A stretch of DNA of 64,000 bases from an uncultured Candidatus Rokubacteria bacterium (GCA_963747235.1 CAVVEU010000024.1:448001-512000); one strand, 5' to 3'; shown: positions 13,224 through 47,389, numbered from the stretch's first letter. Program-made: numbers and translations. The notes: a model not told the origin generated them from the sequence alone.

Positions 13224-13237
13224 GCCTGGATCGCGCC

Positions 13238-15245: not shown

Positions 15246-15252
15246 TTGACGC

Positions 15253-15283: not shown

Positions 15284-15289
15284 TTCTCC

Positions 15290-15928: not shown

Positions 15929-16143
15929 AGGAATTCCTGAAAGGCAATTACAAGGTCGACACCGAGATCAAGGAGACCGTGGACGATGAGCGCTCCCAGC
16001 TCGAGACCGAGTTCGAGCGGAAGGCGCTCTCTCGCCTCGGCGGCAGCATCTGCTTCGTGAGCAAGAAGGGCTTCATCTGGAACGGAGACCAGGAAGGCGA
16101 GGCGAAGAGTGGAGCTGGGAAAGAAGATCGCAAGGAGGCTTGA
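15925..16143 (+). CDS. Small hypothetical protein (72 aa)
   Basis: SD GAAAGGA, ATGA overlap with the regulator, coding-like codon use (MKEFLKGNYKVDTEIKETVDDE...). Confidence 0.6.
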   Translation: MKEFLKGNYKVDTEIKETVDDERSQLETEFERKALSRLGGSICFVSKKGFIWNGDQEGEAKSGAGKEDRKEA

Positions 16144-17116: not shown

Positions 17117-17122
17117 TCGGCC

Positions 17123-18645: not shown

Positions 18646-18649
18646 CCGC

Positions 18650-21723: not shown

Positions 21724-21766
21724 CGCCGGTGGTGCCGCGGTGTGCTATCGTTCTACGACGATTGTC

Positions 21767-22804: not shown

Positions 22805-23835
22805 GGACGCTGACGTACTGGCAGGCACTCGCGGAGGGCCTCGTGCAGGGGATGGAGCGAGACCCGAGCGTGTTCGTCTTCGGGATCGGCGTCGACGATC
22901 ACAAGGGAGTCTTCGGCACCACGCGGGCGGCCTTCGAGCGCTTCGGGGCCAAGCGGGTCTTCGACGTGCCGATCGCCGAGCAGGCGATGACCGGGATCGC
23001 GATCGGCGCGGCGGCCATGGGGAAGCGGCCCGTCCTGGTCCATCCGCGAAACGACTTCATGTTCCTGGCCGCGGACCAGATGATCAATCTGGCCGCCAAG
23101 TGGCGCTACATGTACGGCGGGGCGTCCGAGGTGCCGATCGTGGTGCGGGCCATCGTCGGCAAGGGCTGGGGGCAGGGGGCGACGCACTCGCAGAGTCTTC
23201 ACGCCACGTTCGGGCATTTCCCCGGCATGCAGGTGGTGATGCCGGCGCTGCCTCGGGACGCCAAGGGGCTCACGCTCGCGGCCTTGCAGGCTCGCGGCCC
23301 CGTCGTGATCCTCGAGCACCGCTCGCTCTACGAGACGAAGGGGCCGGTCCCCGAGGCGCCGGAGGTCACGCCGATCGGCTCCGCCGCGGTCGTGCGGGAC
23401 GGGCGGGACGTCACGGTGGTGGCCGCGTCGCTGATGGTGATCGAGGCGCTGGCCGCCGCGGAGATCCTGGCGCCGCTCGACGTGGACGTCGAGGTGGTCG
23501 ATTGCCGGAGCATCCGGCCGCTGGATCACCAGACGATCCTGGCCTCGCTGGCCAAGACGGGGCGGGTCGTCGTGGCCGACACGAGCTGGCTGCACTGCGG
23601 ACTGTCGGCGGAGGTGGCGGCGATCTGCGCCGAGCGCGGCTTCGCTTCCCTCAAGGCGCCGGTTCGTCGCGTGGGCCTCGCCGATTGCCCGGCCCCCGTG
23701 TCGGTCACCCTCGAGCGGGCGTTTTACCCGGATCGGACGACGATCGCGCGGGAGTGCCTGAGCGCCGTGGATCGCAGCCCCGCCGAGCTGGAAGCGCCCG
23801 CGGCGGTGGAGTCGTCCTTCAAGGGGCCCTACTGA
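22801..23835 (+). CDS. ThDP-dependent E1 beta-like subunit, copy 1
   Basis: FDVPIAEQ, DQMINLAAK, GWGQGATHSQ, LEHRSLY, RSIRPLD. Confidence 0.92.
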   Translation: MRTLTYWQALAEGLVQGMERDPSVFVFGIGVDDHKGVFGTTRAAFERFGAKRVFDVPIAEQAMTGIAIGAAAMGKRPVLVHPRNDFMFLAADQMINLAAKWRYMYGGASEVPIVVRAIVGKGWGQGATHSQSLHATFGHFPGMQVVMPALPRDAKGLTLAALQARGPVVILEHRSLYETKGPVPEAPEVTPIGSAAVVRDGRDVTVVAASLMVIEALAAAEILAPLDVDVEVVDCRSIRPLDHQTILASLAKTGRVVVADTSWLHCGLSAEVAAICAERGFASLKAPVRRVGLADCPAPVSVTLERAFYPDRTTIARECLSAVDRSPAELEAPAAVESSFKGPY

Positions 23836-24834: not shown

Positions 24835-25828
24835 GTGGCGCGACCCAAGAGCGCGGTGACCGGCGGCTGCGGCTTCATCGGCAGCCACGTGGTCGATCAC
24901 CTGGTGGCCGCGGGCCACGACGTGGTCGTGATCGACAACTTCAGCACCGGCCGGCCCGAGAATCTGGCTCACCACCGCGGCACCCCGCACGTGCGGGTGG
25001 TCCAGGCGGACGTGGCCGACACCGCGCGGGTGGCGCCCGAGCTCGCGGGCGTGCGGTGGATGTTCCACATCGCGGCGCTCGCCGACATCGTGCCGTCCAT
25101 CCAGCACCCGGAAGCCTACGTGCGGGCCAACGTGATGGGCACCCTCGGCGCCCTGGAGGCGGCGCGGGCGGTCGGAGTCGAGCGCTTCGTGTACTCCGCC
25201 TCCTCGTCCTGCTACGGCATCCCCGACGTCTATCCCACTCCCGAGACCGCGCCGTTCCGGACGGAGTATCCCTACGCGCTCAGCAAGGTGCTCGGCGAGG
25301 AGCTGACGCTGCACTGGGGCCGCGTCTACCGGCTGCCGGTCGTGTCGCTGCGCTACTTCAACGTCTACGGCCCACGGTCGCGGACGTCCGGCACCTACGG
25401 CGCGGTGTTCGGGGTGTTCCTGGCCCAGAAGCTCCACGGGCAGCCGTTCACGGTGGTCGGCGACGGGACCCAGACGCGGGACTTCGTGTTCGTCACCGAC
25501 GTGGCCCGGGCCAACCTCGCGGCCGCCGAGGCCGAGTGCACCGGGCGAGATCTTCAACGTGGGCACCGGCCGTCCCCAGAGCGTGAACCGGCTGGTGGAG
25601 CTGCTCGGCGGATCGGTGGTCCGCGTCCCGAAGCGCCCGGGCGAGCCGGACTCGACCCACGCGGACATCGCAAAGATCCGGCGTGTGCTCGGCTGGGAGC
25701 CCAAGGTGTCCTTCGAGGAAGGGGTCGCCACGATCCTGAAGCAGATCGACTACTGGCGCGAGGCGCCGGTCTGGACGGTGGAGTCGATTTCCGAGGCCAC
25801 CCGCGACTGGTTCCGGTATCTGGGATAG
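24835..25828 (+). CDS. Extended SDR NDP-sugar epimerase (frameshift ~25545)
   Basis: TGGCGFIGSH, AALADIVPSI, YALSK, FNVYGPR, GDGTQTRDF. Confidence 0.9.
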
Positions 25829-25834
25829 GCGGCC

Positions 25835-27367
25835 GTGTACCAGAAATTCGCGCACAAGATCAAGACTCGCGAGGAGCTCCGGGCGCTCATCGGCCCGCGA
25901 CCCCGGGTGCTCAAGGTCATCATGTGCCACGGGACCTTCGACATCGTCCATCCCGGGCACGTGCGCCACCTCATGTACGCGAAGGAGAAGGCCGACATCC
26001 TGATCGCGAGCGTGACCGCGGACGCGCACATCTCCAAGGGAGCCCACCGGCCCTACGTGCCCCAGGAGCTGCGCGCGGCAAATCTCGCCGCGTTCGAGTT
26101 CGTGGACCACGTCATCATCGATCAGAACGAGACGCCGATCGAGAACATCCGGGCGCTCGAGCCGGATTTTTTCGCGAAGGGTTTCGAGTACCAGAGCGAG
26201 CCCCTGCCCCCGAAGACCCGGGAGGAGGTCGGCGCGCTCGAGTCCTACGGGGGCGAGATGGTGTTCACGCCCGGGGACATCATCTATTCGTCGAGCGCGC
26301 TCATCACCGAGCACGAGCCCCAGCTCCGGGTGGACAAGCTCATCACCCTCCTGGCGTCGGAGAGCGTGACGGTCGACGATCTCCGGGCCACGCTGCACGA
26401 CCTCGGCCGCATCCGGGTGCACGTGGTGGGCGACACCATCGTGGACCGATACTCGCACTGCTCCCTTCTCGGCCAGAGCGCCAAGTCGCCCAGCTTCAGC
26501 GTGCGGCTCGAGCACGCCGACGCCTTCGTGGGCGGCGCGGCCGTGGTGGCGAAGCACGTGCGGAGCCTCGGCGCCCAGGTGACGCTGACCACCGTGCTGG
26601 GCCAGGACGAGTCGCGCCGCTTCGTGACCGACGACCTGGCCGCCGCCGGGGTGGGCGTGCGCGCGCTGGTGGATCCGAGTCGCCCCACCACCGTCAAGGA
26701 GCGCTTCATCGCGGATGGGCATCGCATGCTCCAGGTGGATCGGGTGGACAACCGCATCGTCTCCGACCGGGTGCGACGGGAGATCACCGAAGCCATCGCG
26801 GGTGAGCCCGCCGACGTGGTGATCTTCAGCGACTTCCGCCACGGCATCTTTCATCGCACGACGATCCCCGAGTACATCGCGGCAGTGCGCCCCGGCGTCC
26901 TGCGGGCCGCGGACAGCCAGGTGTCGAACCGGTGGGGCAATATCCTCGATTTCCACGGCTTCGACCTCATCACCCCCAACGAGCGGGAAGCCCGCTTCGC
27001 GCTGGCCGATCAGGATTCGGGGGTGCGGCCGCTTGCCCAGGCCCTCTTCCAGCGCGCGGGCTGCCGCTACCTGATCCTCAAGATGGGCGAGCGCGGCATC
27101 CTCACGTACCGGAGCCCGGGCCGGCTGCCGCGCGAGTTCTTCGTGGTGGACAGCTTCGTGGGGCGGCTCCTCGATCCGATCGGGGCCGGCGACGCCCTCC
27201 TGGCCCTGGCGACGCTCTCGCTCGTGCAGTCCGGCAGCATCGTGATCGCCAGCATCCTCGGGAGCCTGGCCGCGGCGACCGCGTGCGAGCGCGAAGGCAA
27301 CGTGCCGGTGCTGATCCCCGAAGTCGAGGACAAGCTCGACGCCCTCAAGCGCGCCGCCGGGTACTGA
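25835..27367 (+). CDS. Bifunctional nucleotidyltransferase / PfkB kinase (HldE-like, reversed domain order), copy 1
   Basis: N-terminal GTFDIVHPGH; C-terminal TPNEREA, DPIGAGDA. Confidence 0.9.
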   Translation: MYQKFAHKIKTREELRALIGPRPRVLKVIMCHGTFDIVHPGHVRHLMYAKEKADILIASVTADAHISKGAHRPYVPQELRAANLAAFEFVDHVIIDQNETPIENIRALEPDFFAKGFEYQSEPLPPKTREEVGALESYGGEMVFTPGDIIYSSSALITEHEPQLRVDKLITLLASESVTVDDLRATLHDLGRIRVHVVGDTIVDRYSHCSLLGQSAKSPSFSVRLEHADAFVGGAAVVAKHVRSLGAQVTLTTVLGQDESRRFVTDDLAAAGVGVRALVDPSRPTTVKERFIADGHRMLQVDRVDNRIVSDRVRREITEAIAGEPADVVIFSDFRHGIFHRTTIPEYIAAVRPGVLRAADSQVSNRWGNILDFHGFDLITPNEREARFALADQDSGVRPLAQALFQRAGCRYLILKMGERGILTYRSPGRLPREFFVVDSFVGRLLDPIGAGDALLALATLSLVQSGSIVIASILGSLAAATACEREGNVPVLIPEVEDKLDALKRAAGY

Positions 27368-27374
27368 GGGCGGC

Positions 27375-28304
27375 GTGCGGTACGTCGTCGTGGGCTACGG
27401 CAATATCGGCCGGCGCCGGGCGCGCCTGCTCGGCGCGCGATGCGTGGCCACCGTGGATCCGGTCGCGCCCGACGCGGCCCGCCGCGGCATGGACGATGTG
27501 CCTCCATCGAGCTATGACGCCGTCGTGCTCGCCGTCCCGAACGCGGCCAAGCTCGACTATCTGAGGCGCTTCCTGGCCGCGGGCAAGCCGGTGCTCGTGG
27601 AGAAGCCGGTCCTCTTCGCGGGCCGCGCCGAGGCCGATCAGCTCCAGCGGTCGGCCCGGACCGGCGCGGTCTGGTACACGTCCTATAACCACCGCTTCGA
27701 GCCGCTGATCGCGCGGCTCAAGCACATGCTGGATGAGGGTGCCGTCGGCAAGCTCGACCGGGTGCGGATGCTCTACGGCAACGGCACGGTGCGGGACTGG
27801 GTGGGCGGCTGGCGCGAGGCGGGCGGCGGCGTGCTCGAGGATCTCGGCTGCCACCTCCTGGATCTCTGCGGCTTCCTGCTCGGCCACGAGCACGAGGCCT
27901 ACCGGCTGTGGGAGCTGCGCTCGGTCGAGTCCGCCACCTGGGACCATGCGCTCTTCGCCTCCGCCGACCGTCGGGTCGTCTGCGAGGTGGGCAACGTGTT
28001 CTGGAAGAACTGCTTCCAGATCGACGTGTTCGGGAGCGCGGGCTCCGTGCACGTGGACGGGCTCGGCAAGTGGGGCGGGGGCACGCTCACGCGCCGGACC
28101 CGGGTGCTCCCGAGCGGCCCGCCGCCCGAGGTGAGCGAGGCCGGGCCGGCGGGCGACTCCACGTGGGAGGCCGATCTGGCCGAGTTCGAGCGCCGCGTCG
28201 CGGCCGGAGAGAGCTCGCTCGAGAACGACTGGCGCATCTCCGCGGCGCTGTCCGATCTGCTGGCGCAGGCTCCGGGGCTCGGCGGGCGCGGGCGGGACGC
28301 ATGA
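27375..28304 (+). CDS. Gfo/Idh/MocA oxidoreductase
   Basis: VGYGNIGRRR, LVEKPV, YNHRFEP, GGVLEDLGCH. Confidence 0.88.
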   Translation: MRYVVVGYGNIGRRRARLLGARCVATVDPVAPDAARRGMDDVPPSSYDAVVLAVPNAAKLDYLRRFLAAGKPVLVEKPVLFAGRAEADQLQRSARTGAVWYTSYNHRFEPLIARLKHMLDEGAVGKLDRVRMLYGNGTVRDWVGGWREAGGGVLEDLGCHLLDLCGFLLGHEHEAYRLWELRSVESATWDHALFASADRRVVCEVGNVFWKNCFQIDVFGSAGSVHVDGLGKWGGGTLTRRTRVLPSGPPPEVSEAGPAGDSTWEADLAEFERRVAAGESSLENDWRISAALSDLLAQAPGLGGRGRDA

Positions 28305-29572
28305 CGGCGGCGATCGGCGTCGTGGGGCTGTCCCATCTCGGCACGGTGGTGAGCGCCGGGCTGGCTTCGCTGGGCCTGCCGGTGACCGCGGTCGACCGGG
28401 CCGATCGAGTGGCCGACTTCGCGCCGGGGCGGCTGCCGTTTCCCGAGCCGGGGCTCGCCGAGCTCCTGGCCGGCCCGCGGCCCACGTTCACCGCGGACTA
28501 CGCGGCCCTCGCGGGCGCCTCGCTGGTCATTCTCGCGGTGGACACGATGACCGACGACCGGAATCGCTCGGACGTCTCCGTGCTGGAGGCGCACGTCGAG
28601 GGTCTGCTGCCGTGGCTCCGCCGGGACGCGGTGGTGGTACTGATGAGCCAGGTGCCGGTGGGCTACACCCGCGCGCTGGCCGCCCGCGTCCGTGCCCACC
28701 GCCCCGAGCTGGCCGCGCGCGTCTACTACTGGGTGGAGACCCTCGTGATCGGCGACGCGGTGGCGCGCTACCTGAGACCCGAGCGCATCATCCTGGGGGG
28801 CGTCGCGGGCCAGCCGGAGCCCGCGCTGGACGCGCTGCTCGAGCGCTTCGGCTGTCCGGTGCACCGGATGGACTACGAGAGCGCCGAGCTCTGCAAGGCC
28901 GCGATCAACCTGTACCTCGCGACCTCGGTGACGTTCGCCAATGCCCTGGCGGACCTGTGCGAGGCCACCGGCGCCAGCATGCGCGCCATCATCCCGGCCC
29001 TCCGCGCCGACCGCCGCATCGGGCCCGCCGCGTACATCCGGCCGGGACTCGGGCTGGCCGGGGGTAATCTGGAGCGCGACCTCGTCCACCTCAAGGAGCT
29101 GGCCGAGCGGACCGGGGTGCGGGCAGATCTCTTCGACGTCATCCTGGAGCGGAGCGCGGCCCGCTACGGCTGGCTGCTCGCCGCGATCGAGCGGTGGATC
29201 CTCAAGGCGGCGCCACGGCCGCGGCTGGCCCTCTGGGGCCTCGCCTACAAGAAGAACACGGACTCCACGAAGAACGCGGTCAGCCTTCGGCTGGCGGCCG
29301 ATCTGCGCTCACGGGCGCTCCTGGTCGCGTATGATCCGCGGGTGACGGCTTCCATTCCCGGCGTCGAGCGGGTGGCCTCTGCGCTCGACGCCGCCCGGGG
29401 CGCAGACGGCCTGGTGATCCTGACCGACTGGGACGAGTTCGCCTCGGCCGATCCGGCGCTGCTGCGCGCGGCCCTCGGCCGGCCCGTGGTGGTGGACGCG
29501 GCGGGGGTGCTCGACCCTGGGCGCGCCCGGGCCGCGGGGCTGACCCACGTCGCCATCGGGGAGCCGGCGTGA
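28301..29572 (+). CDS. UDP-glucose/GDP-mannose dehydrogenase-family protein lacking the catalytic Cys
   Basis: PFPEPGL, SAELCKAAIN, GLAGGNLERD, WGLAYKKNT, LTDWDEF. Confidence 0.85.
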   Translation: MTAAIGVVGLSHLGTVVSAGLASLGLPVTAVDRADRVADFAPGRLPFPEPGLAELLAGPRPTFTADYAALAGASLVILAVDTMTDDRNRSDVSVLEAHVEGLLPWLRRDAVVVLMSQVPVGYTRALAARVRAHRPELAARVYYWVETLVIGDAVARYLRPERIILGGVAGQPEPALDALLERFGCPVHRMDYESAELCKAAINLYLATSVTFANALADLCEATGASMRAIIPALRADRRIGPAAYIRPGLGLAGGNLERDLVHLKELAERTGVRADLFDVILERSAARYGWLLAAIERWILKAAPRPRLALWGLAYKKNTDSTKNAVSLRLAADLRSRALLVAYDPRVTASIPGVERVASALDAARGADGLVILTDWDEFASADPALLRAALGRPVVVDAAGVLDPGRARAAGLTHVAIGEPA

Positions 29573-30442
29573 CGGCGCCGGGCGAGGAGCGCCGGCGTAT
29601 CCTGATCGCGGGGGCCAGCGCGGGTATCGGGGCGGCGCTGGTGCGCGCCCTCGCGGCCGACGGGCACGAGGTCTTCGCGTGCGCGCGCCGGGCGGACGCG
29701 CTCCGGGCCGTGACCGACCGCGACACGCTCGCCCGCTCGCGGGTCTGCGACGTCGGGGACGAGGAGCAGGTGCGGGCGCTCTACGCCTGGGTCGTCGGCG
29801 ACCGCGCCGGCGCTGGACGGCCTGATCGTCGCGGCGGGCGCCTTCGGGGCCATCGGCGCCTTCGAGCAGACCGAGAGCGCGCTCTGGTGGGGGACGCTTC
29901 GCGCCAACGTGTTCGGGCTCTACGCGCTCGCCAAGCACGGGCTCCCGCTGCTCGAGCGGGGGACCCGGCCCCGGATCATCACCTTCTCGGGGGGCGGCGC
30001 TTTCGGCACGTTTCCGCGCTACAGCGCATATGCTACGTCCAAGGCCGCGGTGGTCCGGCTGACCGAGTGCCTGGCCGACGAGCTGCGCCCGCGGGGGATC
30101 GCGGTCAACGCGGTCGCGCCGGGGATGGTGGCGACCGAGATCCACAAGGCCACGCTCGAGGCGGGGCCGGATCGGGCCGGCGTCGAGCACTTCGAGCGGA
30201 CGCGGGCCGTCGTGAGCGCGGGAAGCGTGCCCATGGAGGTGCCGGTGGATTGTGTGCGGTTCCTGCTGTCGCGCGACGCCGACGGTCTCACCGGCAAGAC
30301 CGTCGCGGCCAATTTCGACCCGTGGCGCGGCGCCGGGTTCCGCGCCCACATCGCGGACATCACGGCCTCCGATGTGTACACGATGCGGCGCATCAATCCG
30401 GGGCACCTGCCTGACGGCCCGCTGAAGGAGCGTCTGTCGTGA
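29569..30442 (+). CDS. Classical SDR oxidoreductase (frameshift ~29810)
   Basis: AGASAGIG, FSGGGA, YATSK, VNAVAPG. Confidence 0.88.
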
Positions 30443-31053
30443 GCAACGGGGCATACATCGACCGGTTCCTGCAGGGGGTGGAGGAGATCGTGCGGAAGAT
30501 CTCCCGCCCCGACGTGGATCGCGCCATCGAGGTCCTGTACGCGGCCTGGCGCGACGGGCGCACCGTCTTCACCGCCGGCAATGGAGGGTCGGCCGGCACC
30601 GCGACCCATTTCGCGGCGGACCTGTGCAAGATGACCGCGATGCCGGGCCGGCCGCGCCTGCGGGCGCTGAGCCTGGTCGACAATATCCCGCTGGTGAGCG
30701 CGCTGGTGAACGACGACGGCTGGGACAACGTGTATACCGAGCAGCTCGAAACCCACTACCGGCCCGGCGACGTCCTCATCACGATCAGCGTGCACGGAGG
30801 CCGCGGCGCGGACCGGGCGGGCGTCTGGTCGCAGAATCTCATGAAGGCCATCGACTACGTCAAGCGCCGCGGCGGCACCACCATCGGCCTCGCCGGGTTC
30901 GACGGGGGCGCGATGCGGGAAGTGTGCGACGTGTGCGTGGTGGTGCCCTACGACACGACGCCCCACGTGGAGGGGTTCCACGTCGTCCTGCATCACCTGA
31001 TGGCGTTCTGCCTGGCCGAGCGGATCGCGGGCGGCGCCCCGATGAGGCGATGA
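30439..31053 (+). CDS. gmhA: SIS-domain phosphosugar isomerase (GmhA-like), copy 1
   Basis: GNGGSAGTATHFAADL, ALVNDDG, LAGFDGG, HVEGFH. Confidence 0.88.
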   Translation: MSNGAYIDRFLQGVEEIVRKISRPDVDRAIEVLYAAWRDGRTVFTAGNGGSAGTATHFAADLCKMTAMPGRPRLRALSLVDNIPLVSALVNDDGWDNVYTEQLETHYRPGDVLITISVHGGRGADRAGVWSQNLMKAIDYVKRRGGTTIGLAGFDGGAMREVCDVCVVVPYDTTPHVEGFHVVLHHLMAFCLAERIAGGAPMRR

Positions 31054-31583
31054 AGCGCGCGGTCTTCCTGGACCGGGACGGGGTGCTCAACCCGATGGTG
31101 GAGCGGAACGGTCGCTGGGGCGCCCCGCTGACCGCGGACGCGTTCGCCCTCTACCCGTGGACGGCCGAGTCGGTGACCCGCCTGAAGGCGGCCGGGCTTC
31201 TCTGCCTGGTCGCCACCAACCAGCCCGAGATCGCCACCGGGGAGCTGGACGTGGAGGCGCTGGAGGCCATGCACCGGCGTCTGGTCCGGGAAGCCGCGAT
31301 CGACGGCGTCTACGTGTGCCCGCACCGCGACGCCGACGGCTGCGCCTGTCGCAAGCCGCGGCCGGGCCTGCTCGAGCAGGCGGCCCGGGAGTGGGGAGTC
31401 GAGCTCGGCCGGTCCTTCCTGGTCGGCGACCGCTGGCGGGATATCGAGGCGGCCCACGCCGCCGGCTGCACCGCGATCCTGGTGGACGGTCCCGAGCCGG
31501 GGCGCGCCCGGCCGGACCACCGCGCCCGGGACCTGCGCGAAGCGACGACGACGATCCTCACCCTGATGGAGGGGTCATCATGA
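31050..31583 (+). CDS. gmhB: HAD-IIIA sugar bisphosphate phosphatase (GmhB-like)
   Basis: FLDRDGVLN, TNQP, CPH...CACRKPRPG, VGDRWRDI. Confidence 0.92.
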   Translation: MKRAVFLDRDGVLNPMVERNGRWGAPLTADAFALYPWTAESVTRLKAAGLLCLVATNQPEIATGELDVEALEAMHRRLVREAAIDGVYVCPHRDADGCACRKPRPGLLEQAAREWGVELGRSFLVGDRWRDIEAAHAAGCTAILVDGPEPGRARPDHRARDLREATTTILTLMEGSS

Positions 31584-32254
31584 AGCTGTTCGTGGACTCG
31601 GCGAACCTGGGAGAGATCGAGGAGGCGCTGGCCCGGGGCTTCGTGGCCGGCATCACCACCAACCCCTCGATCATGGCGCGGGAGGAGCGGGTGGACTTCA
31701 CCGAGCACGTGCACCGGATCATCGGGTTGATCCGGCGGTACGGCAAGGATGTGCCGCTCTCGGTCGAGGTGTCGGTGGAGGATCCGGATGAGATGCTCGA
31801 TCAGGCGCTGAAGTTCGTCGCGGCCTTCCGGTATCCCCAGCTCAGCGTCAAGGTCCCGATCGGCTGGAACGAGCTCCGGGTGATCGCGGAGCTGCGCCGG
31901 CGCGACATCCGCGTCAACTGCACGTGCTGCATGTCGTTCAACCAGGCGTACATGGCCGCGCTGGCCGGGGCCAACTACGTGAGTCTCTTCTACAACCGCA
32001 TCCGCGACACCGGCTACGACGCGCGCCTGGTGGTGGCGGAGACGGTGCGCGCCTTCCGGGAGGGCGGGGTCGAGGCGGAGGTCATCGTGGGGAGCATCCG
32101 GCATCTCTACGACGTGAACGAAGCGTTCTCCGCGGGAGCGCACATCGTCACGGTCCCGTCCAAGTTTCTGCCCCAGCTCACCCAGCATCCCAAGACCACC
32201 GAGGCGGTCAACCAGTTCCTGTCCGACTTCCGCCGCTGGAGCGACCCGGCCTAG
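31580..32254 (+). CDS. Transaldolase (short TalC/FSA family)
   Basis: LFVDSA, GITTNPS, SVEV, VKVP (Schiff-base Lys), SLFYNR, GSIR. Confidence 0.92.
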   Translation: MKLFVDSANLGEIEEALARGFVAGITTNPSIMAREERVDFTEHVHRIIGLIRRYGKDVPLSVEVSVEDPDEMLDQALKFVAAFRYPQLSVKVPIGWNELRVIAELRRRDIRVNCTCCMSFNQAYMAALAGANYVSLFYNRIRDTGYDARLVVAETVRAFREGGVEAEVIVGSIRHLYDVNEAFSAGAHIVTVPSKFLPQLTQHPKTTEAVNQFLSDFRRWSDPA

Positions 32255-32270
32255 GCTCGTCGCCGCCCGC

Positions 32271-32810
32271 GTGAAGGGACTTCTCCTCGCCCTCGCGTGC
32301 TCCGCCGCCACCGCGCTCGGGGTCACGCTGCTGTTCGCGTGCCGGGACGTCGCGCGGCGGGCGGCCGCGATGTGCGGCGTGTTCCTCGTCACCGCCCTCG
32401 TCTACCCGGTGGCGTACGGCCTGACTCCGCCCGACCTCGGCGTCCTGCCGGCGTGGCTCGTCGAGCCACGGACCTGGCTCGATGGCGCGTTCGGCCTGAC
32501 TGTGCACGCGGCGCTGTTCTTCGGCGGTTGGCTGCAGGTCTACAACCTGGCCGAGCGCGGCTTCTCGCTGCGCATCCTGATCGATATCACGGAAGCGCCG
32601 GCGCCCGTGCTCACCGGCGATGAGGTGGCGGCGCGCTACGGGGGCGGCCGCGGCGCGGCCTGGATGCGAGAGAAGCGGATCGATGGGCTGGTGGAGACCG
32701 GCCTGGCTGCGTGGCGCGACGGTCGGCTCCGGGCCACTCCCAAGGGCCGGCGCACCGCGCGGTTTTTCGGCCGGCTCAGGGCCGCGCTGCGAATCGACAC
32801 CCGCCAGTGA
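32271..32810 (+). CDS. Hypothetical membrane protein with C-terminal wHTH-like domain
   Basis: 3 hydrophobic segments, then RGFSLRILIDI...RIDGLVETGL...ATPKGR. Confidence 0.7.
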   Translation: MKGLLLALACSAATALGVTLLFACRDVARRAAAMCGVFLVTALVYPVAYGLTPPDLGVLPAWLVEPRTWLDGAFGLTVHAALFFGGWLQVYNLAERGFSLRILIDITEAPAPVLTGDEVAARYGGGRGAAWMREKRIDGLVETGLAAWRDGRLRATPKGRRTARFFGRLRAALRIDTRQ

Positions 32811-33304
32811 TGCGCGATCCGCTCACGCTGGCGCTGGGGTCCGCCCTCGCGTGGATCACGGCCGCGCTCATCGCCCACCTCGTGGTGTTCCGCCTCGTCC
32901 GGATCGAGCGGCGCGCGCGGACCCTGGTCGCTCTGTTCGGCGCGGCGGCGGTCGGGCATCTGGCGACGGTCCTCGGCTCGCTGGACGGCTGGCGGGCGGG
33001 CTACGGGCTGCTGCTGATCGGCTGCGCGTTCATCTGCTACATGCCATTCTTCTACACGGTCGCGGCTTCTCAGTCGGTGCAGATGCTCATCGCGCTGGAG
33101 GCGGCCCACGACGGGCTTTCCGTGGACGAATTGCGCCGGATGTACGCGGTCGAGGCGGTGTTCGCGGGCCGTCTCGAGACGCTCGTGGGCGCGGGCTACC
33201 TCCAGAGGACGGTGGGGGGGTACGCGCTGGCCCCCAAGGGGCGTCTGGTCGCCCGGTGCTTCCAAGTGGTGAAAACCGTGTGGAATTTGGGCCCGGGCGG
33301 GTAG
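32810..33304 (+). CDS. Hypothetical membrane protein with C-terminal wHTH-like domain (paralog-like)
   Basis: 3 TMs, then SQSVQMLIAL...RLETLVGAGYL...LAPKGR; TGATG coupling. Confidence 0.7.
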   Translation: MRDPLTLALGSALAWITAALIAHLVVFRLVRIERRARTLVALFGAAAVGHLATVLGSLDGWRAGYGLLLIGCAFICYMPFFYTVAASQSVQMLIALEAAHDGLSVDELRRMYAVEAVFAGRLETLVGAGYLQRTVGGYALAPKGRLVARCFQVVKTVWNLGPGG

Positions 33305-33328
33305 GAGAATCAGTAGGTGGCAATTTTT

Positions 33329-33348
33329 TCACCGTGGTGAGTTAAGCT
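33329..33348 (+). promoter_or_regulatory. -10 element TAAGCT with upstream TCACC-GT-GGTGA palindrome
   Basis: AT-rich gap; TAAGCT is 6 nt before ATG 33355. Confidence 0.45.
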
Positions 33349-33354
33349 TTTTTC

Positions 33355-34890
33355 ATGCCCCCGCGGACCTTCGAAGACAAGATCAAGACGCTCCCCGAGC
33401 TGGTCGCGATCTGCGACGAGCTGCGCGCGGCGGGCCAGAAAGTCGCGCAGTGCCACGGCGTCTTCGACCTGGTCCACCCGGGGCACGTCCGCCACTTCGA
33501 GGCGGCGCGGGCGGAGGGCGACCTGCTGGTCGTGACCATCACGCCCGACCGCTTCGTGAACAAGGGGCCTGGGCGCCCGGTCTTCAACCAGCGCCTGCGC
33601 GCGGAGACGGTGGCGGCCCTCGGCTGCGTGCGGTACGTGGCGGTCACCGAATCACCCTCCGCGGAGGACGTGATCCGCCAGATCCGCCCCGCGGTGTACG
33701 TGAAGGGGAGCGACTACCTCGACGCGAAGGACGACCTCACCGGCAAGATCCTCGACGAGCGTCGCGCCGTCGAGGACGGGGGCGGCCGCATCCATTTCAC
33801 CACCGAGATCGCGTTCAGCTCGAGCAACCTGCTCAACCTGCACTTCGACGTGTACCCGGAGGAGGCCCAGGACTTCCTCCGCGATTTCCGCCAGCGACAC
33901 TCCGCGGACGAGGTGATCGGCCTCCTGAAGAACCTGAAGGATCTGAAGGTCCTGGTCGTCGGCGAGGCGATCATCGACGAGTACCACTACGTGCAGTCGA
34001 TGCAGAAGTCCCCCAAGGAGCTGCTGGTCGCCACCCGCCACCTGCGGGAGGAGCACTTCGCGGGCGGCATCCTCGCCTGCGCCAACCACGTGGCCGGGTT
34101 CTGCGGGCAGGTGGACGTGGTGTCGGTGCTCGGGGCCAAGGATTCGCGCGAGAGCTTCATCCGGCGGAGCCTGAAGCCGAACGTGACCCCGCAGTTCTTC
34201 TATCACCCGGACGCGGGCACGATCGTCAAGCGCCGGTACGTCGAGCAGGCGTTCCTGAACAAGATGTTCGAGGTGTCGTTCCTGGACGACGGCGAGCTGC
34301 CGACCGAGGTGTCACGGCAGGTCGAGCGCTATCTGGCCCGGATGCTCGCCGACTACGACGTGGTCATCGTCGCCGACTACGGCCACGGCTTCCTCGGTCG
34401 CGATCTGATCCAGCTCCTGTGCTCCGAGTCGCGCTTCCTGGCCTTGAACGTCCAGACCAACAGCGCCAACCTCGGCTACAACCTCGTCACCAAGTATCCG
34501 CGCGCCCACTACGTGTGCATCGACGAGCCGGAGGTCCGGCTGGCCGCCCACGATCGCCGGAGCAACCTCGAGGAGATCATCCGGCGGCTCGCCAAGGACA
34601 TGTCGTGCCCTCGCGTGTCGATCACCCGCGGCCACAAGGGGAGCGTGGTGTACGCGGAGGGCGAGGGGTTCTCGCACGCCCCGGTGCTCTCCCGCGAGAT
34701 CGTGGACCGCATCGGCGCGGGTGACGCGTACCTGTCGATCACCGCCCCGTGCACCGCCGCGGGCTACTCGCCGGAGGTCGTTGGATTCATCGGGAACGTC
34801 GCGGGGGCGCTCGCGGTGCGCATCGTCGGCAACCGCACGCCCGTCGAGCCGGTGCCGCTCTACAAGTTCGTCTCCGCCCTCCTGCAATGA
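33355..34890 (+). CDS. Bifunctional nucleotidyltransferase / PfkB kinase, copy 2
   Basis: GVFDLVHPGH, NKGPGRP, VKGSDY, DRIGAGDAY. Confidence 0.9.
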   Translation: MPPRTFEDKIKTLPELVAICDELRAAGQKVAQCHGVFDLVHPGHVRHFEAARAEGDLLVVTITPDRFVNKGPGRPVFNQRLRAETVAALGCVRYVAVTESPSAEDVIRQIRPAVYVKGSDYLDAKDDLTGKILDERRAVEDGGGRIHFTTEIAFSSSNLLNLHFDVYPEEAQDFLRDFRQRHSADEVIGLLKNLKDLKVLVVGEAIIDEYHYVQSMQKSPKELLVATRHLREEHFAGGILACANHVAGFCGQVDVVSVLGAKDSRESFIRRSLKPNVTPQFFYHPDAGTIVKRRYVEQAFLNKMFEVSFLDDGELPTEVSRQVERYLARMLADYDVVIVADYGHGFLGRDLIQLLCSESRFLALNVQTNSANLGYNLVTKYPRAHYVCIDEPEVRLAAHDRRSNLEEIIRRLAKDMSCPRVSITRGHKGSVVYAEGEGFSHAPVLSREIVDRIGAGDAYLSITAPCTAAGYSPEVVGFIGNVAGALAVRIVGNRTPVEPVPLYKFVSALLQ

Positions 34891-35453
34891 CCCCCAAGTT
34901 CCTCGTCGAGCTCGGCGAGATGCAGTCGCGGATCGAGGCGTCCGATCACGCGGGCACCGTCCTCTCCTGCTCGGACGCGATGGACCGCGCGGTCGCGCTG
35001 GTGCGGGGCCAGACCGCGGCGGGCCGGAAGGTCATCTTCGTCGGCAACGGCGGGAGCGCGGCGATCGCGAGCCACCAGGCGGTGGACTACTGGAAGAACG
35101 GCGGCATGCGCGCGGTGTCCTTCAACGACGGCGCGCTCCTGACCTGCGTGGGCAACGACTTCGGCTACGCCCACGTGTTCGAGAAGCCGATCGAGATGTT
35201 CGCCGATCCCGGCGACGTGCTGATCGCGATCTCGAGCTCCGGCCGGTCCGAGAACATCCTGCGAGCCGCGGCCGCCGGCGCGCGGGCCCGCTGCCGCGTC
35301 ATCACGCTCTCCGGCTTCGGGGTCGACAACCCGCTCCGCCGCCTGGGCGAGCTGAACTTCTACCTGCCTTCGGACTCCTACGGGTACGTGGAGATCACCC
35401 ACCTGGCGATCTGCCACTGCATCCTCGACACGATCATCGCCGCTCGCGGTTGA
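34887..35453 (+). CDS. SIS-domain phosphosugar isomerase (GmhA-like), copy 2
   Basis: GNGGSAAIASH, TCVGNDFGY, ISSSGRSEN, YGYVEITH. Confidence 0.9.
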   Translation: MTPKFLVELGEMQSRIEASDHAGTVLSCSDAMDRAVALVRGQTAAGRKVIFVGNGGSAAIASHQAVDYWKNGGMRAVSFNDGALLTCVGNDFGYAHVFEKPIEMFADPGDVLIAISSSGRSENILRAAAAGARARCRVITLSGFGVDNPLRRLGELNFYLPSDSYGYVEITHLAICHCILDTIIAARG

Positions 35454-35463
35454 ACCCGGTGTT

Positions 35464-35558
35464 CCGGGGCTGGGCCTGCCTCTTGCATGCATGTTCTGCG
35501 CTGGAAGTGCGTCTGTCCGATCTCCGGGTCGGATCCGGGGGCTCAGGCCCGGCGCCGG
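35464..35558 (+). other. Predicted structured intergenic element (multi-stem)
   Basis: 15-nt imperfect inverted repeat enclosing a 7-bp stem with a c(UCCG)g tetraloop. Confidence 0.35.
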
Positions 35559-35592
35559 GGGCGGCGGCTAACTCAATAAAGGACTGATACTT

Positions 35593-36591
35593 ATGAGCAA
35601 ATTGCATGTCCTGGTGACGGGTGGGGCCGGCTACGTCGGGGCCGTGCTGGTGCCCAAGCTGCTGGCCCAGGGCCATCGGGTCACGGTCCTCGATCTCTAC
35701 ATTTTCGGCGACCAGGTGCTCAAGGCTGTCAGTGGGCACCCGGGCCTCCGGGAGGTCAAGGGAGACATCCGCGATCGGCGGCTCCTCGAGCGCGAGCTCA
35801 CCGGCGTCGATGCGGTCATCCACCTCGCCTGCATCTCGAACGATCCGAGCTTCGAGCTGAACCCGGAGCTGGGCAAGTCGATCAACTACGACGCGTTCCT
35901 GCCCCTCGTGGAGATCGCGAAGGACAAGGGCGTGCGGCGGTTCATCTACGCCTCGTCGTCGAGCGTGTACGGCATCAAGGACGAGGAGAACGTCACCGAG
36001 GATCTGCCGCTCCAGCCGCTGACCGACTACTCGAAGTACAAGGCCCTCTGCGAGGAGGTGCTCCTGAAGGCGCAGGCTCCGGGGTTCACGAGCCTGATCC
36101 TGCGGCCGGCCACCGTGTGCGGGTACTCCCCGCGGCTGCGGCTCGACCTGGCGGTCAACATCCTCACCAATCTCGCGGTGAACACCGGGCGCATCACCGT
36201 GTTCGGGGGCGCCCAGAAGCGGCCCAACATCCACATCGAGGACGTGACCGATCTCTACGTGCGGTCGCTCGAGTGGCCCGAGGAGAGCATCGACGGCCAG
36301 ATCTTCAACGCGGGCTACGAGAACCACACCGTGTCCCAGCTCGCCGACATGGTGGCCGGGAGTCGTGGGCCGCGAGAAGGTGGACATCGTGACCACGCCC
36401 ACCGACGACCACCGCTCGTACCACATCTCGTCGGAGCGCATCAAGCGGATGCTGGGATTCGAGCCGAGCCACAGCGTCGAGGAAGCGGTGCGCGACCTCT
36501 CGCGCCGCCTACGGCCAGGGATGCGATCCCCAATTCGATGACCGACAAGCGGTACTACAACATCAAGACCATGTTGGAGGTGAAGCTCTAG
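35593..36591 (+). CDS. Extended SDR NDP-sugar epimerase/dehydratase, paralog of 23835 (compensating frameshifts ~36360/36500)
   Basis: TGGAGYVG, LACISNDPSF, YSKYK, RPATVCGYSPRLRLDL. Confidence 0.9.
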   Translation: MSKLHVLVTGGAGYVGAVLVPKLLAQGHRVTVLDLYIFGDQVLKAVSGHPGLREVKGDIRDRRLLERELTGVDAVIHLACISNDPSFELNPELGKSINYDAFLPLVEIAKDKGVRRFIYASSSSVYGIKDEENVTEDLPLQPLTDYSKYKALCEEVLLKAQAPGFTSLILRPATVCGYSPRLRLDLAVNILTNLAVNTGRITVFGGAQKRPNIHIEDVTDLYVRSLEWPEESIDGQIFNAGYENHTVSQLADMVAGSRGPREGGHRDHAHRRPPLVPHLVGAHQADAGIRAEPQRRGSGARPLAPPTARDAIPNSMTDKRYYNIKTMLEVKL

Positions 36592-36592
36592 C

Positions 36593-37717
36593 ATGCACGT
36601 TCCCTATTCGTACCTGCGCGACCAGTTCGCCGACTCCGAGCCCATCCTCCGCGACATCAAGGGGCTGCTCGAATCCACCCAGTTCACGCTGGGTCCGCCG
36701 GTGGCCGAGTTCGAGGGGCGCTTCGCGCGCCTCTGCGGGGCGCGGCACGCGATCGGGGTGGGCACCGGCACCGACGCGCTCTCGCTCTCGCTCAAGGCGC
36801 TCGGAGTCGGGCCGGGCGACGAGGTGATCACCGCCGCGAACACCTTCATCGCCACCGCGGGCGCCATCGTCCAGGCGGGCGCCCGGCCGGTGTTCGTGGA
36901 CGTGCTCGACGACTTCAACCTCGATCCGGGGAAGATCGAGGCGGCCATCACCCCCCGGACGCGGGCGCTGCTGCCCGTGCACTACGCAGGCCAGCCCGCC
37001 AAGATGGGTCCGATCCTCGAGATCGCGCAGCGCCGCGGGCTGCCGGTGGTCGAGGACGCCTGCCAGGCCATCAGCGCGGCCATCGACGGTCGGCTCGTGA
37101 GCAACTTCGGCGTGGCGGCCGGCTTCAGCCTGCACCCGCTCAAGAACCTCAACGTCTGGGGTGACGGAGGGGTGATCGTCACCAACTCCGCCGAGCTGGA
37201 CGCGAAGCTCCGGCTCCTGCGCAACCACGGCCTCGTGAATCGCGACGAGGTGGAGATCTTCGGGCACAACTGCCGGCTCGACACGCTGCAGGCGATCGTG
37301 GGCAACCACCTGATCGGCGACACCGAGGCGATCACCGCCGCCCGCATCAAGAACGCCCTCGCGCTCGACGCGGGGCTTCGGCCGCTGGCGCCGCGGGTGC
37401 GGGTGCCCGCGCGGCTGCCCAGCGAGCGGCACGTCTTCCACCTCTACATGTTCGAGGCGGACGATCGCGACGGGCTCCTCGCCTGGCTGCAGCAGAAGGA
37501 GATCGAGGCGAAGATCCACTATCCGGTCCCGCTCCACCTGCAGCCGGCGAGCCGGCGCCTCGGCTACAAGGAGGGCGACTTCCCGGTGGCGGAGCGGCAG
37601 GCCAAGCGGATCATCACGCTCCCGGTCCACCAGCACCTCCGCGCCGACCAGGTGAAACACATGATCGATTCCATCGCCGAGTTCTACGCCGATGAGCGCT
37701 TGCGCGAAGAGCCTTAG
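36593..37717 (+). CDS. DegT/DnrJ/EryC1/StrS aminotransferase
   Basis: GTGTDAL, EDACQA, SLHPLKNL, GDGG. Confidence 0.93.
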   Translation: MHVPYSYLRDQFADSEPILRDIKGLLESTQFTLGPPVAEFEGRFARLCGARHAIGVGTGTDALSLSLKALGVGPGDEVITAANTFIATAGAIVQAGARPVFVDVLDDFNLDPGKIEAAITPRTRALLPVHYAGQPAKMGPILEIAQRRGLPVVEDACQAISAAIDGRLVSNFGVAAGFSLHPLKNLNVWGDGGVIVTNSAELDAKLRLLRNHGLVNRDEVEIFGHNCRLDTLQAIVGNHLIGDTEAITAARIKNALALDAGLRPLAPRVRVPARLPSERHVFHLYMFEADDRDGLLAWLQQKEIEAKIHYPVPLHLQPASRRLGYKEGDFPVAERQAKRIITLPVHQHLRADQVKHMIDSIAEFYADERLREEP

Positions 37718-38830
37718 ATGAAACACGCCATGCACGTGAAGTACATGGATCTGCCGCGCCAGTTCGAGGACGGAACGATCGTCGCGCGGGTGGTGGACGA
37801 GTTCAAGCGGTGCCAGTTCGTCCTCGGGCCCCAGGTGGCCGAGTTCGAGCGGCGGTTCGCCCGGGTGTGCGGGGCGGCGCACGCGCTCGGCCTGAACTCG
37901 GGAACCGACGCGCTGTTCCTCGCCCTCCGGGCCCTCGGCGTGGGGGCCGGCGACGAGGTGATCACCGCGCCCAACAGCTTCGTGGCGACCGCGGGCGCCA
38001 TCGTGATGACCGGCGCGACACCGGTCTTCGTGGACGTCAATGCCGAGTACCTCATGGATCCCGCTCGTCTCGAGGACGCGATCACCCCGCGCACGCGCGC
38101 GGTGATCCCGGTGCATCTCAACGGCAACCCGGTCGACATGCGTGCGCTCGGCGTGGTCGCGACGCGGCACGGGCTGCACGTCATCGAGGACTGCGCCCAG
38201 GCGGTGGGGGCGCTGGTGGACGGCAAGGTGACGGGCTCCATCGGCGTCGCGGGAGCGTTCAGCCTGTTCCCGCTGAAGAATCTCGGGGTGGCCGGGGACG
38301 GGGGCATGCTCACCACCAATTCGGCCGAGCTCGCCGAGCGCGTGCGCCTGCTGCGCCACCACGGCCTGCGCAACCGGGACGAGTGCGAGACCTGGGGCTA
38401 TAACAGCCGACTCGACACGATCCAGGCCATCGTGGGCGACGCGGTGCTCGACACGCTCGAGCGCCTGACCGACGCGCGGATCAAGCACGCCGCGTTCTAC
38501 GACGCGGCGCTGGCCGATCTGGCCCCGGACGTGGTCGTGCCGCCCCGCCGCGACGGAGTGCGGCAGGTCTTCCACCTCTACGTGGTGCAGGCGGAGTCGC
38601 GCGACCGGCTGCGCGAGTTCCTCGAGGCGCGCGGGGTGGAGACCAAGATCCACTACCCGATCCCGATCCATCTCCAGAAGGCGGCTCGGGGCCTCGGCTA
38701 CAAGCGCGGCGCGTTCCCGGTCTGCGAGGCGCAGAGCGAGCGGATCGTCTCGCTGCCGGTGCACGAGTACCTGACCGAGGACGAGCAGGGGTACGTGGTC
38801 GAGCGTATCCGGGAGTTCTACGGGCGATGA
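37718..38830 (+). CDS. DegT/DnrJ/EryC1/StrS aminotransferase (tandem paralog)
   Basis: NSGTDAL, EDCAQA, SLFPLKNL, GYNSRLD. Confidence 0.93.
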   Translation: MKHAMHVKYMDLPRQFEDGTIVARVVDEFKRCQFVLGPQVAEFERRFARVCGAAHALGLNSGTDALFLALRALGVGAGDEVITAPNSFVATAGAIVMTGATPVFVDVNAEYLMDPARLEDAITPRTRAVIPVHLNGNPVDMRALGVVATRHGLHVIEDCAQAVGALVDGKVTGSIGVAGAFSLFPLKNLGVAGDGGMLTTNSAELAERVRLLRHHGLRNRDECETWGYNSRLDTIQAIVGDAVLDTLERLTDARIKHAAFYDAALADLAPDVVVPPRRDGVRQVFHLYVVQAESRDRLREFLEARGVETKIHYPIPIHLQKAARGLGYKRGAFPVCEAQSERIVSLPVHEYLTEDEQGYVVERIREFYGR

Positions 38831-39868
38831 GCCGCGCGACGACGACGAAGCGAGCCGCGCGCCGGCGCCCCGCGGCACCGCGCAAGATCGACGCCGGGCT
38901 CCGCGGCCTGGCTCCCGCGCTCCTGGTGGACCTCTACGTGACGATGCGGCGCATCCGGCGGGCCGAGGAGACGATCGCGGCCCTCTATCCCGAGCAGGAG
39001 ATCCGCTGCCCGACCCATCTCTCGATCGGCCAGGAAGCGGGCGCGACCGGTGTCTGCCTCGCCCTGCGCCTGGCCGACACCGCGGTGAGCACGCATCGCT
39101 GCCACGCCCACTACATCGCCAAGGGCGGCGAGCTGCGCGCCATGTTCGCCGAGCTGTACGGGCGCGCCACCGGGTGCTGCGGGGGCAAGGGCGGCTCCAT
39201 GCATCTCACCGCTCCCGAGGTGGGCATGCTGGGGGCGTCCGCGATCGTGGCGGGATCGGTGCCGCTCGCGCTCGGCATCGCGCTGGCCGCGCGGATGGCG
39301 GGCACCGACGAGGTGGCGGTCGCCTTCTTCGGCGACGCCGCGATGGAGCAGGGGGTGACGCACGAGAGCCTGGCGCTGGCGGCCCTGCGGCGCCTTCCGG
39401 TCCTCTTCGTGTGCGAGAACAATCTCTACGCGACCAGCACCCCGCTCCGGACGCGGCAGGCGGGCAGCGACTTGGCCGTCCGCGCGGCGGGCCACTGGCT
39501 GCCGGGCAGTCACGGTGGACGGCAATGACGTGGTCGCGGTATACCGGGCGGCCCGGACCGCGGTGGAACGGGCGCGGCGCGGGCAGGGCCCCACCCTGAT
39601 CGAGGTGAAGACCTATCGGTTCCGCGAGCACGTGGGCCCGAACTACGATATCGATCAGGGCTACCGCACCCAGGCCGAGCTGGACCGCTGGATGGCGCGG
39701 GATCCGGTGGGCGGCCTGGCGCGACGCCTCGAGCGCGCGGGGCTGCTTCCGGCCGCGCGGCGGGCCGTGCTCGACGCCCAGATCGAGGCCGAGGTCGCGG
39801 ACGCGGTCGCCTTCGCCAAGTCGAGCCCATTCCCCGAGCCGGCCGCGCTGTTCGCGGACGTGGACTAG
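38827..39868 (+). CDS. ThDP-dependent E1 alpha-like subunit, copy 2 (frameshift ~39500)
   Basis: HLSIGQEA, GKGGSMH, GDAAMEQG...CENN, TYRFREHVG. Confidence 0.9.
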
Positions 39869-39882
39869 GGAGAGTCATCCGC

Positions 39883-47385: not shown

Positions 47386-47389
<4 letters not shown>
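46402..47389 (+). CDS. Extended SDR, NDP-uronate decarboxylase/epimerase-like (frameshift ~46820)
   Basis: GGAGFIG, ASTSETY, PRFAYAASK, RFHNVYGPRMG, RRCPDI. Confidence 0.85.

Follow-up and report, generated by a model that had tools for sequence, protein, structure and literature searches.

An eight-gene transaldolase cassette

The window, as we call the whole stretch of DNA that was analyzed, comprises 64,000 nucleotides from an uncultured Candidatus Rokubacteria bacterium (GCA_963747235.1, CAVVEU010000024.1:448001-512000). At 24835-32254 it carries eight co-directional genes, ending in a transaldolase gene, which an earlier note, made from the sequence alone, had read as an enzyme set for an eight-carbon sugar (octose) of the kind found in lincosamide antibiotics, placed within a surface-glycan locus. 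Pfam located the contiguous run, and every family that the note had named, where the note had placed them. In order along the + strand, the genes encode an extended SDR epimerase/dehydratase in a position like that of LmbM (24835..25828; frame 1 matches Pfam Epimerase at 4e-56, and frame 2 holds the C-terminal end); a bifunctional HldE-like fusion in reversed order (25835..27367; Pfam CTP_transf_like and PfkB); a Gfo/Idh/MocA oxidoreductase (GFO) of a divergent clade, here called type A (27375..28304; Pfam); a three-domain UDPG_MGDP_dh protein that resembles UDP-glucose dehydrogenase (UGDH) and lacks the catalytic Cys (28301..29572; Pfam); a short-chain SDR, putatively a ketoreductase (29569..30442; adh_short, its N-terminal part in one frame and its C-terminal part in another); a SIS isomerase, SIS1 (30439..31053; Pfam SIS_2); a HAD-IIIA phosphatase of the GmhB/LmbK type, whose translation starts ...FLDRDGVLN (31050..31583; Pfam); and a short-type transaldolase (31580..32254; Pfam TAL_FSA, 6.7e-42). 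Six of the genes are coupled by 4-bp start/stop overlaps (ATGA or GTGA) at five junctions: GFO/UGDH-like, UGDH-like/SDR, SDR/SIS, SIS/HAD, and HAD/transaldolase.

The source genome is 5.57 Mb in 42 contigs and 88% complete; the window has a G+C content of 70%, and its long run of + strand genes was delimited by third-position GC and Pfam matches. The nearest public loci lie in metagenome-assembled genomes (MAGs) of Candidatus Methylomirabilota/Rokubacteria, and soil and sediment metagenome runs of 17 studies contain near-identical DNA.

The neighborhood survey that the earlier note had proposed showed the gene set recurring beside the transaldolase. Among 80 loci retrieved with the transaldolase, with neighbors identified by tblastn and many contigs ending early, we found a HAD gene nearby in 66, SIS in 65, NTP-transferase in 43, GFO in 41, short SDR in 30, UGDH-like in 28, and HldE-like and DegT in 15 each. 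The complete gene order is preserved in five Methylomirabilota-type MAG loci (L006-L010), at 62-87% identity. Because the families co-occur in these 80 loci and the order is kept in L006-L010, the cassette is not a chance assembly. Another form, type B, has a GHMP kinase and an NTP transferase in place of the fusion and otherwise consists of the same families, including a homolog of the short SDR. A type-B UGDH-like query returned 80 loci, with a transaldolase gene flanking it in 53; archaea, candidate phyla radiation (CPR) bacteria, and the cultured Gemmata algarum are represented. In this wider sense the transaldolase cassette occurs repeatedly, in phyla of both bacteria and archaea. When plasmids were searched with the transaldolase, every match was below 40% identity, and the plasmid match H8 lacks the cassette context. 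We found no paper on such a cassette in the open full-text literature, a search that did not extend to supplementary files or subscription journals.

Two further loci deserve mention. The closest relative locus, L005, whose transaldolase is 94% identical, is missing the block from the SDR epimerase to the short SDR (at ∼6230-6546) and has SIS, HAD, and transaldolase genes directly ahead of the adjoining gene group that we call module B; either the block was deleted or the assembly collapsed across paralogous SDR genes. In the source genome itself, a second transaldolase cassette (C24:200244-207278; HldE-like, UGDH-like, HAD, SIS, and transaldolase) lies ∼240 kb upstream of the window, with several of its genes split over frames.

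Three genes of the window, two of them in the cassette, have one extra base each and a length of 3n+1 (24835-25828, 29569-30442, and 38827-39868, with the extra bases near 25540, 29793, and 39507/8), which corrects the earlier note's reading; 24835-25828 was checked by tblastn and blastn against intact homologs in L006 and L009. These are probably sequencing errors rather than signs of decay, because frameshifts also split core genes elsewhere in the genome: the canonical HldE gene on contig C20 lies in three frames, a gene for a glycosyltransferase of family GT9 in two, and another transaldolase gene is likewise affected; the splits on C20 indicate indel errors throughout the assembly. Third-position GC is high on both sides of each shift. 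Among the matches listed, a 660-nt contig of metagenome run X2, differing in 1 other letter, lacks one base at 29793, and contigs of all four runs lack one at 39507/8, although these differ in 35-46 other letters and so come from relatives; none of the matches listed concerns the shift near 25540. The alternative, that the insertions in the SDR epimerase and short SDR genes are real and that the cassette is decaying in this strain and yields no finished sugar, seems very improbable. It could draw on the 3n+1 length of all three genes, on the block missing from L005, and on run X1, whose contigs keep the base at 29793 (deletion at 0 of 33.7 depth among the matches listed); against it stand the split core genes, the high GC flanking the shifts, and the X2 and four-run contigs, and X1 may be the source sample and hence not independent. 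Joints in the read alignments were considered as rearrangements and rejected: their sides of 20-44 letters at 90% likeness read as cross-matches between paralogs.

Relationships of the cassette enzymes

Our references for the lincosamide pathway are clusters from Streptomyces genomes, standing in for the assayed proteins of S. lincolnensis and S. caelestis. The genomes were reached via a published 16S primer, and a scan of 401 of them with the transaldolase profile found a short transaldolase in 6. A celesticetin-type cluster is present in two genomes (L302/L314 and L303/L315): it starts with a GFO bearing a PP-binding tail and adjoining a SIS gene, followed by F/D/C-like genes, and goes on with R, Q (PmbA_TldD), T (a glycosyltransferase), V (MDMPI), an acyl-CoA ligase (AMP-binding), a salicylate-synthase-like protein (chorismate-binding), and an O-methyltransferase. 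This content agrees with the ccb table and text of PMC4351081. Four genomes (L304-L307) have HAD, UGDH-like, SDR, SIS, GFO, GHMP, NTP-transferase, DegT, and transaldolase genes in lmbK-L-M-N-Z-P-O-S-R order. The context of this set (L304-L313) is not that of lincomycin: it includes a class II aminoacyl-tRNA-synthetase-like gene, a GT1 glycosyltransferase, and an aminoglycoside-2''-adenylyltransferase-family gene. The set may belong to the biosynthesis of a lincosamide-like natural product, containing an amino-octose, that has yet to be described. Scanning the collection with type-B UGDH-like proteins returned no Streptomyces, a scan with one Streptomyces transaldolase gave only 6 close relatives, with neither S. 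lincolnensis nor S. caelestis on record among them, and structure matches in the PDB held no matching lincosamide sugar enzyme. For the roles of LmbR (transaldolase), LmbN (isomerase), LmbK (phosphatase), and LmbO (guanylyltransferase), and for those of LmbM, LmbL, CcbZ, and CcbS, we follow PMC4351081 and PMC12945683. When the ccb-type proteins were searched against the source genome, the first matches of the SIS, HAD, UGDH-like, and DegT proteins were window genes.

SIS1 has the clearest affinity to the lincosamide set. It is 47% identical to the ccb-type SIS, is its reciprocal best match in this genome, and scores 94.3 bits against the gmhA model (cut-off, 209.45). In a careful IQ-TREE analysis, SIS1, the transaldolase-linked SIS proteins, and five Streptomyces SIS proteins formed one clade (42 of 57 rows; support, 97/91); a second such analysis recovered the same clade (32 of 52 rows; 91/90), and a further tree placed SIS1 with the lincosamide-type proteins at a starred support of 96. 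Outside this clade fall the GmhA-like rows (100/100), five transaldolase-less SIS proteins of relatives, and a clade that contains the window's other SIS protein, SIS2 (100/100). Both IQ-TREE trees place the lincosamide-type SIS proteins within the transaldolase-linked clade. In the comparison with LmbN and GmhA that the earlier note had proposed, this gene falls on the LmbN side, with Streptomyces stand-ins for LmbN. The 57-row tree leaves out two long branches, window SIS2 and L049_2667, and keeps 20 rows of the large SIS clade after thinning; the 52-row tree was thinned by a further 14 rows and does not contain L420, L426, or L430. All trees used complete ORFs within set length limits, with near-duplicates removed above 80% (transaldolase), 75% (SIS), 62% (UGDH-like and HAD), or 60% (GFO) identity, and left out the loci L362, L376, L405, and L409, which are from unpublished genomes. 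None of 26 loci with GmhA-like genes (published genomes; flanks of ∼1.5 kb) had a transaldolase beside them. Within the window's family (f1), a GmhB-like gene occurs in 54 of 59 genomes and a TIGR00441-like SIS gene (E ≤ 1e-10) in 26 of 59, few of them near the cut-off; the GmhB-like and TIGR00441-like tallies include the unpublished genomes G469, G485, and G496 (in f1, G469 and G496), none of whose sequences entered the trees.

The UGDH-like protein carries GGN-LERD where UGDH has GGSCFPKD, placing Asn on the catalytic Cys (alignment to 4a7p and 3gg2). Over 118 UGDH-like proteins, the residues in this column are 99 Thr, 15 Asn, and 4 Cys; the Streptomyces L-type proteins have Thr. The Cys-less proteins, from the window and from Streptomyces, lie on one side of a branch with a starred support of 97, whose other side holds only 3 canonical rows. 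The window protein is 33% identical to the ccb-type L protein versus 29% to the window's own canonical UGDH, and it is the best match for ccb L in this genome (146 versus 134 bits). With the Cys lost in both and with this best match, the likeness to LmbL that had been proposed for this gene holds up. A type-A GFO gene always adjoins an Asn-type UGDH-like gene; the best solved relative of the window GFO is 9m37 (9e-15).

Among the remaining enzymes, the extended SDR is 35% identical to the M protein of the lmbK-R-ordered Streptomyces set, and the HAD protein is 41-44% identical to Streptomyces K-type proteins (41% to the ccb type), scoring 120.6 against the GmhB model (cut-off, 178). The nine sugar genes mapped in the Streptomyces runs showed no counterpart of the short SDR; no short-SDR query gave a match there. 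The fusion has a nucleotidyltransferase domain at residues 24-158 followed by a PfkB kinase domain at residues 189-500, and scores 92.9 bits against rfaE_dom_II, 147.6 against rfaE_dom_I, and 161.6 against HldE (cut-off, 521) in NCBIfam. Instead of the GHMP kinase (LmbP) and NTP_transferase (LmbO) of the lincosamide set, the cassette has a cytidylyltransferase-like/PfkB fusion, and the window's fusions have no match among the Streptomyces P and O proteins. Here Pfam and NCBIfam bear out the earlier note, which had an HldE-like fusion substituting for LmbP/LmbO.

Fructose-6-phosphate aldolases (FSA) have Gln and Tyr where transaldolases have Glu and Phe. The cassette transaldolase has the motifs SVEV at residue 61 and SLFYNR at residue 135; Glu63, Lys91 (the Schiff-base residue), and Phe137 align with those of the solved short transaldolases 3r8r, 1vpx, and 3s0c and are the same in all 16 aligned relatives, which confirms the transaldolase-type residues reported by the earlier note. 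Its best solved match is 3r8r (1e-38), with FSA entries weaker, and it scores 149.9 against the fsa_talC model (cut-off, 245.95). It is the second, lower-scoring copy in this genome, beside a housekeeping transaldolase on contig C40. A transaldolase-family gene is present in 38 of 41 related genomes, mostly of the housekeeping type at ∼200 bits; a second, lower-scoring gene of the cassette type occurs in ∼10 of the 41, this genome included. The R protein of the lmbK-R-ordered set matches the window transaldolase first. In the clade of the window protein, the solved enzymes' SPFVGR reads SLFY(G/N)R, which puts a Tyr beside the active-site Phe; this Tyr, next to Phe137, might bear on the choice of acceptor.

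A proposed octose product and its alternatives

Taken family by family, the cassette resembles the lincosamide sugar pathway in having a private transaldolase with a SIS isomerase and HAD phosphatase as its neighbors, an extended SDR epimerase, a Cys-less UGDH-like protein paired with a GFO, and a SIS protein of the same clade. It differs in its PfkB/cytidylyltransferase fusion, in Asn rather than Thr at the Cys position, in a GFO from a separate and very divergent clade, in its extra short SDR, in having no aminotransferase fixed to it, in a transaldolase without special affinity to the R type, and in lying in a surface-glycan locus rather than an antibiotic cluster. We conclude that the cassette belongs to a widespread pathway primed by a transaldolase, as a divergent member with HldE-type activation. 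By analogy with the lincosamide set, we favor on balance the reading that 24835-32254 is an operon-like cassette for a nucleotide-activated octose of the surrounding surface-polysaccharide locus. The product is then likely to be a deoxy-octose nucleotide rather than lincosamine itself, if the analogy is followed. What stands of the earlier note's nucleoside diphosphate (NDP)-activated amino- or deoxy-octose is the match between families, the placement of SIS1, the loss of the catalytic Cys in the UGDH-like protein, and the HldE-like fusion; the carbon number and any amino group on the cassette product are parts that we infer.

A route can be drawn from family and gene context throughout. The transaldolase would move a three-carbon unit from fructose-6-phosphate or sedoheptulose-7-phosphate to ribose-5-phosphate, giving octulose-8-phosphate, which SIS1 would isomerize to an aldose 8-phosphate. 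The PfkB half of the fusion would then phosphorylate C1, the HAD phosphatase would take off the distal phosphate, and the cytidylyltransferase-like half would form the NDP-sugar, which by analogy with HldE would be ADP-beta-linked, unlike the GDP-alpha form of LmbP/LmbO. The Cys-less UGDH-like protein and the GFO may carry out a side-chain oxidation/dehydration like that of LmbL and LmbZ; finally, the short SDR would reduce a keto group and the extended SDR would act as epimerase.

Several observations weigh against this octose reading. The chain length itself, C8 versus C7, rests on analogy. The likeness of the transaldolase to LmbR that the earlier note had proposed found no specific support: it is 35% identical to the ccb-type R protein versus 37% to the genome's housekeeping copy, the ccb-type R protein matches the housekeeping gene on C40 first, and in the tree the cassette transaldolases fall into at least three clades with an unresolved backbone, the Streptomyces ones on a long branch. 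The GFO does not group with CcbZ-type proteins as the note had proposed. It is 28% identical to the ccb-type Z protein, is only the fifth-best match for it in this genome, and sits in its own 5-row clade (starred support of 100; branch length, 3.4), while the type-B GFO proteins join the Streptomyces Z proteins (support, 85). The HAD tree has no starred clade containing the window protein, and its housekeeping GmhB-like rows do not form one group. For SIS1, support for the clade is moderate, the sample of transaldolase-less SIS proteins is small and from one phylum, and in an approximately unbiased (AU) test a placement of SIS1 by itself among the transaldolase-less proteins was not rejected (p, 0.069). 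No further GmhA-like gene was seen in this genome that would serve the heptose genes on C20, so that a cassette SIS could act on sedoheptulose-7-phosphate. The frameshifts in two cassette genes, with the X1 depth at 29793, also weigh against the octose reading.

A modified NDP-heptose would accommodate many of these observations. In that case the transaldolase would raise the supply of sedoheptulose-7-phosphate from fructose-6-phosphate and erythrose-4-phosphate, SIS1 would be a divergent GmhA, and the UGDH-like, GFO, and SDR proteins would tailor the side chain or ring of a heptose. All five core enzymes do match heptose models best (gmhA, GmhB, and rfaE domains I and II), the transaldolase is as near to the housekeeping type as to ccb-type R, the GFO is not of the Z type, the AU result left SIS1 free to fall outside the lincosamide-type clade, and there is no second GmhA-like gene. 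Indeed, the ADP-L-glycero-beta-D-manno-heptose pathway (GmhA, HldE, GmhB, HldD, and GT9) uses the same four families for isomerization, C1 phosphorylation, dephosphorylation, and nucleotidyl transfer, and the HldE domain models are the best named matches of the window fusion. The window fusion, however, has the reverse domain order, a transaldolase is attached, every equivalog model scores far below its cut-off, and both a canonical-order HldE and the GT9 genes are on a different contig from the cassette.

We consider the modified heptose doubtful, if by no means negligible. Heptose-type clusters can manage without a transaldolase. In relatives, SIS/GHMP/HAD/NTP-transferase clusters of this kind (L384, L422, and L428) lack one, as does module B, and their SIS proteins fall outside the transaldolase-linked clade, inside which the lincosamide-type proteins nest. 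These clusters support the earlier note's statement that heptose pathways need no private transaldolase. The pentose-phosphate pathway ordinarily yields sedoheptulose-7-phosphate as an intermediate, and a transaldolase-family gene is already present in 38 of 41 related genomes. The GDP-D-glycero-alpha-D-manno-heptose pathway consists of GmhA, the GHMP kinase HddA, GmhB, and HddC. Its likeness is to the type-B cassette, with its GHMP kinase and NTP transferase, and to the transaldolase-less versions in L384, L422, and L428; the window differs in using an HldE-type module, and the transaldolase-linked SIS clade stands apart from the SIS proteins of those clusters.

It is also conceivable, if improbable, that the transaldolase extends another acceptor (a hexose phosphate, for instance, or an aldose phosphate of the deoxy or amino kind), giving a sugar of C9 or more or an unusual C7/C8 isomer unrelated to the lincosamide intermediate. 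Consistent with this, the clade of the window transaldolase stands apart from those of the housekeeping, second-cassette, and Streptomyces enzymes and has SLFY(G/N)R rather than SPFVGR, the type-A GFO is very divergent, and the locus holds other enzymes that add C2 and C3 units (E1 alpha/beta and NeuB); but nothing speaks for such an acceptor directly, and SIS1 groups with lincosamide-type isomerases.

Returning to the octose reading, we would extend it tentatively beyond this organism. Transaldolase-primed NDP-octose pathways could be spread across many bacterial phyla, CPR bacteria, and archaea as common sources of surface building blocks, with two interchangeable activation modules (GHMP kinase plus NTP transferase, or the reversed HldE fusion) and a dehydration by the Cys-less dehydrogenase and GFO; the lincosamide sugar pathway of Streptomyces would be a late offshoot, and the present organism would make an ADP-linked deoxy-octose beside an amino or branched sugar derived from ADP-heptose. 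The GHMP form of the cassette appears to be the stock from which the lincosamide sugar genes derive. If the octose reading is right, the cell-surface glycans of soil and sediment microbes would widely contain, so far unnoticed, a class of sugars that is otherwise known mainly from lincosamide antibiotics, and the evolutionary source of the lincosamide sugar genes would be revealed. The cassette would also supply new enzymes (a transaldolase forming octulose-8-phosphate, an octose kinase/nucleotidyltransferase fusion, and a Cys-less dehydrogenase/GFO dehydratase pair) usable for chemoenzymatic synthesis of higher sugars. For comparison, the window offers an internal contrast, since a transaldolase-linked SIS/HldE pair lies next to a transaldolase-free one.

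Module B and the surrounding polysaccharide island

Downstream of the cassette, and also on the + strand, module B encodes a second reversed HldE-like fusion, HldE2 (33355-34890; Pfam and NCBIfam), SIS2 (34887-35453; Pfam and NCBIfam), which belongs to a transaldolase-less clade with a starred support of 100/100, an SDR epimerase (35593-36591), and two DegT aminotransferases, DegT1 (36593-37717) and DegT2 (37718-38830). These are followed on the same strand by E1 alpha (38827-39868; one extra base at 39507/8) and E1 beta (39883-40923) genes, an ORF of unknown family (40925-42094; 389 amino acids), and a radical SAM/SPASM gene (42114-43238); apart from the ORF of unknown family, all were assigned by Pfam. 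The second fusion, the second SIS gene, and two E1 alpha/beta pairs are additions to the gene list of the earlier note.

Module B occurs, whole or in part, without a transaldolase in the relatives L385, L423, L425, L426, and L427. Both DegT genes travel with the transaldolase-free HldE2, SIS2, and E1 alpha/beta genes, in full in L423, L425, and L426 and in part in L424, and no DegT gene was found in the flanks of L006, L007, L009, and L010. DegT2 is 34% identical to the ccb-type protein and is the best match in this genome for ccb S. Because they travel with a transaldolase-free module in relatives, the DegT genes are not clearly LmbS analogs: the earlier note was right about their position just downstream, but they belong to the separable module B, which makes the link to the octose cassette that it had drawn doubtful. 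Module B is probably a transaldolase-independent, heptose-type module, a pathway for an amino and C-branched sugar derived from ADP-heptose.

Two E1 alpha/beta pairs of the thiamine-diphosphate type lie amid the sugar genes (21740-23835 and 38827-40923). They bring to mind the AviB1/AviB2 pair of E1-like proteins, for which the addition of a two-carbon branch to keto-sugars has been proposed, in avilamycin and in branched octoses of the paulomycin type. According to PMC4753412, the proposed role of the AviB1/AviB2 complex is to use pyruvate for installing an acetyl branch at C-4. The likeness is in the placement of the window's E1 pairs among sugar-nucleotide genes; the difference is that they belong to module B and the region upstream, outside the transaldolase cassette.

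The surface-glycan setting described by the earlier note is borne out by the neighboring genes. Around the cassette extends a surface-polysaccharide island of >45 kb with NeuB, HisF-like, Maf/MptE-like, and PglD-like proteins, GT2 and GT4 transferases, methyltransferases, a third DegT protein, a Bac_transf fragment, and Wzy_C. No GT9 heptosyltransferase gene lies within the window, and all 5 GT9 matches of the genome are on C20 or C11; the canonical heptose genes of the lipopolysaccharide core, with a kinase-first HldE, a GmhB-like gene, and GT9 heptosyltransferases, are at C20:28984-38608.

Other features of the island were noted in passing. Another SDR epimerase gene (46333-47389) is split over two frames near 46800, and the Bac_transf gene (62100-62465) spans only positions 68-178 of the profile and so is truncated or frameshifted. 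At 12459-19300, a NeuB synthase, HisF-like and Maf/MptE-like proteins, a protein with a B12-binding domain, and a PglD-like acetyltransferase are encoded together, which suggests a nonulosonic-acid pathway of the pseudaminic or legionaminic type in the same island.

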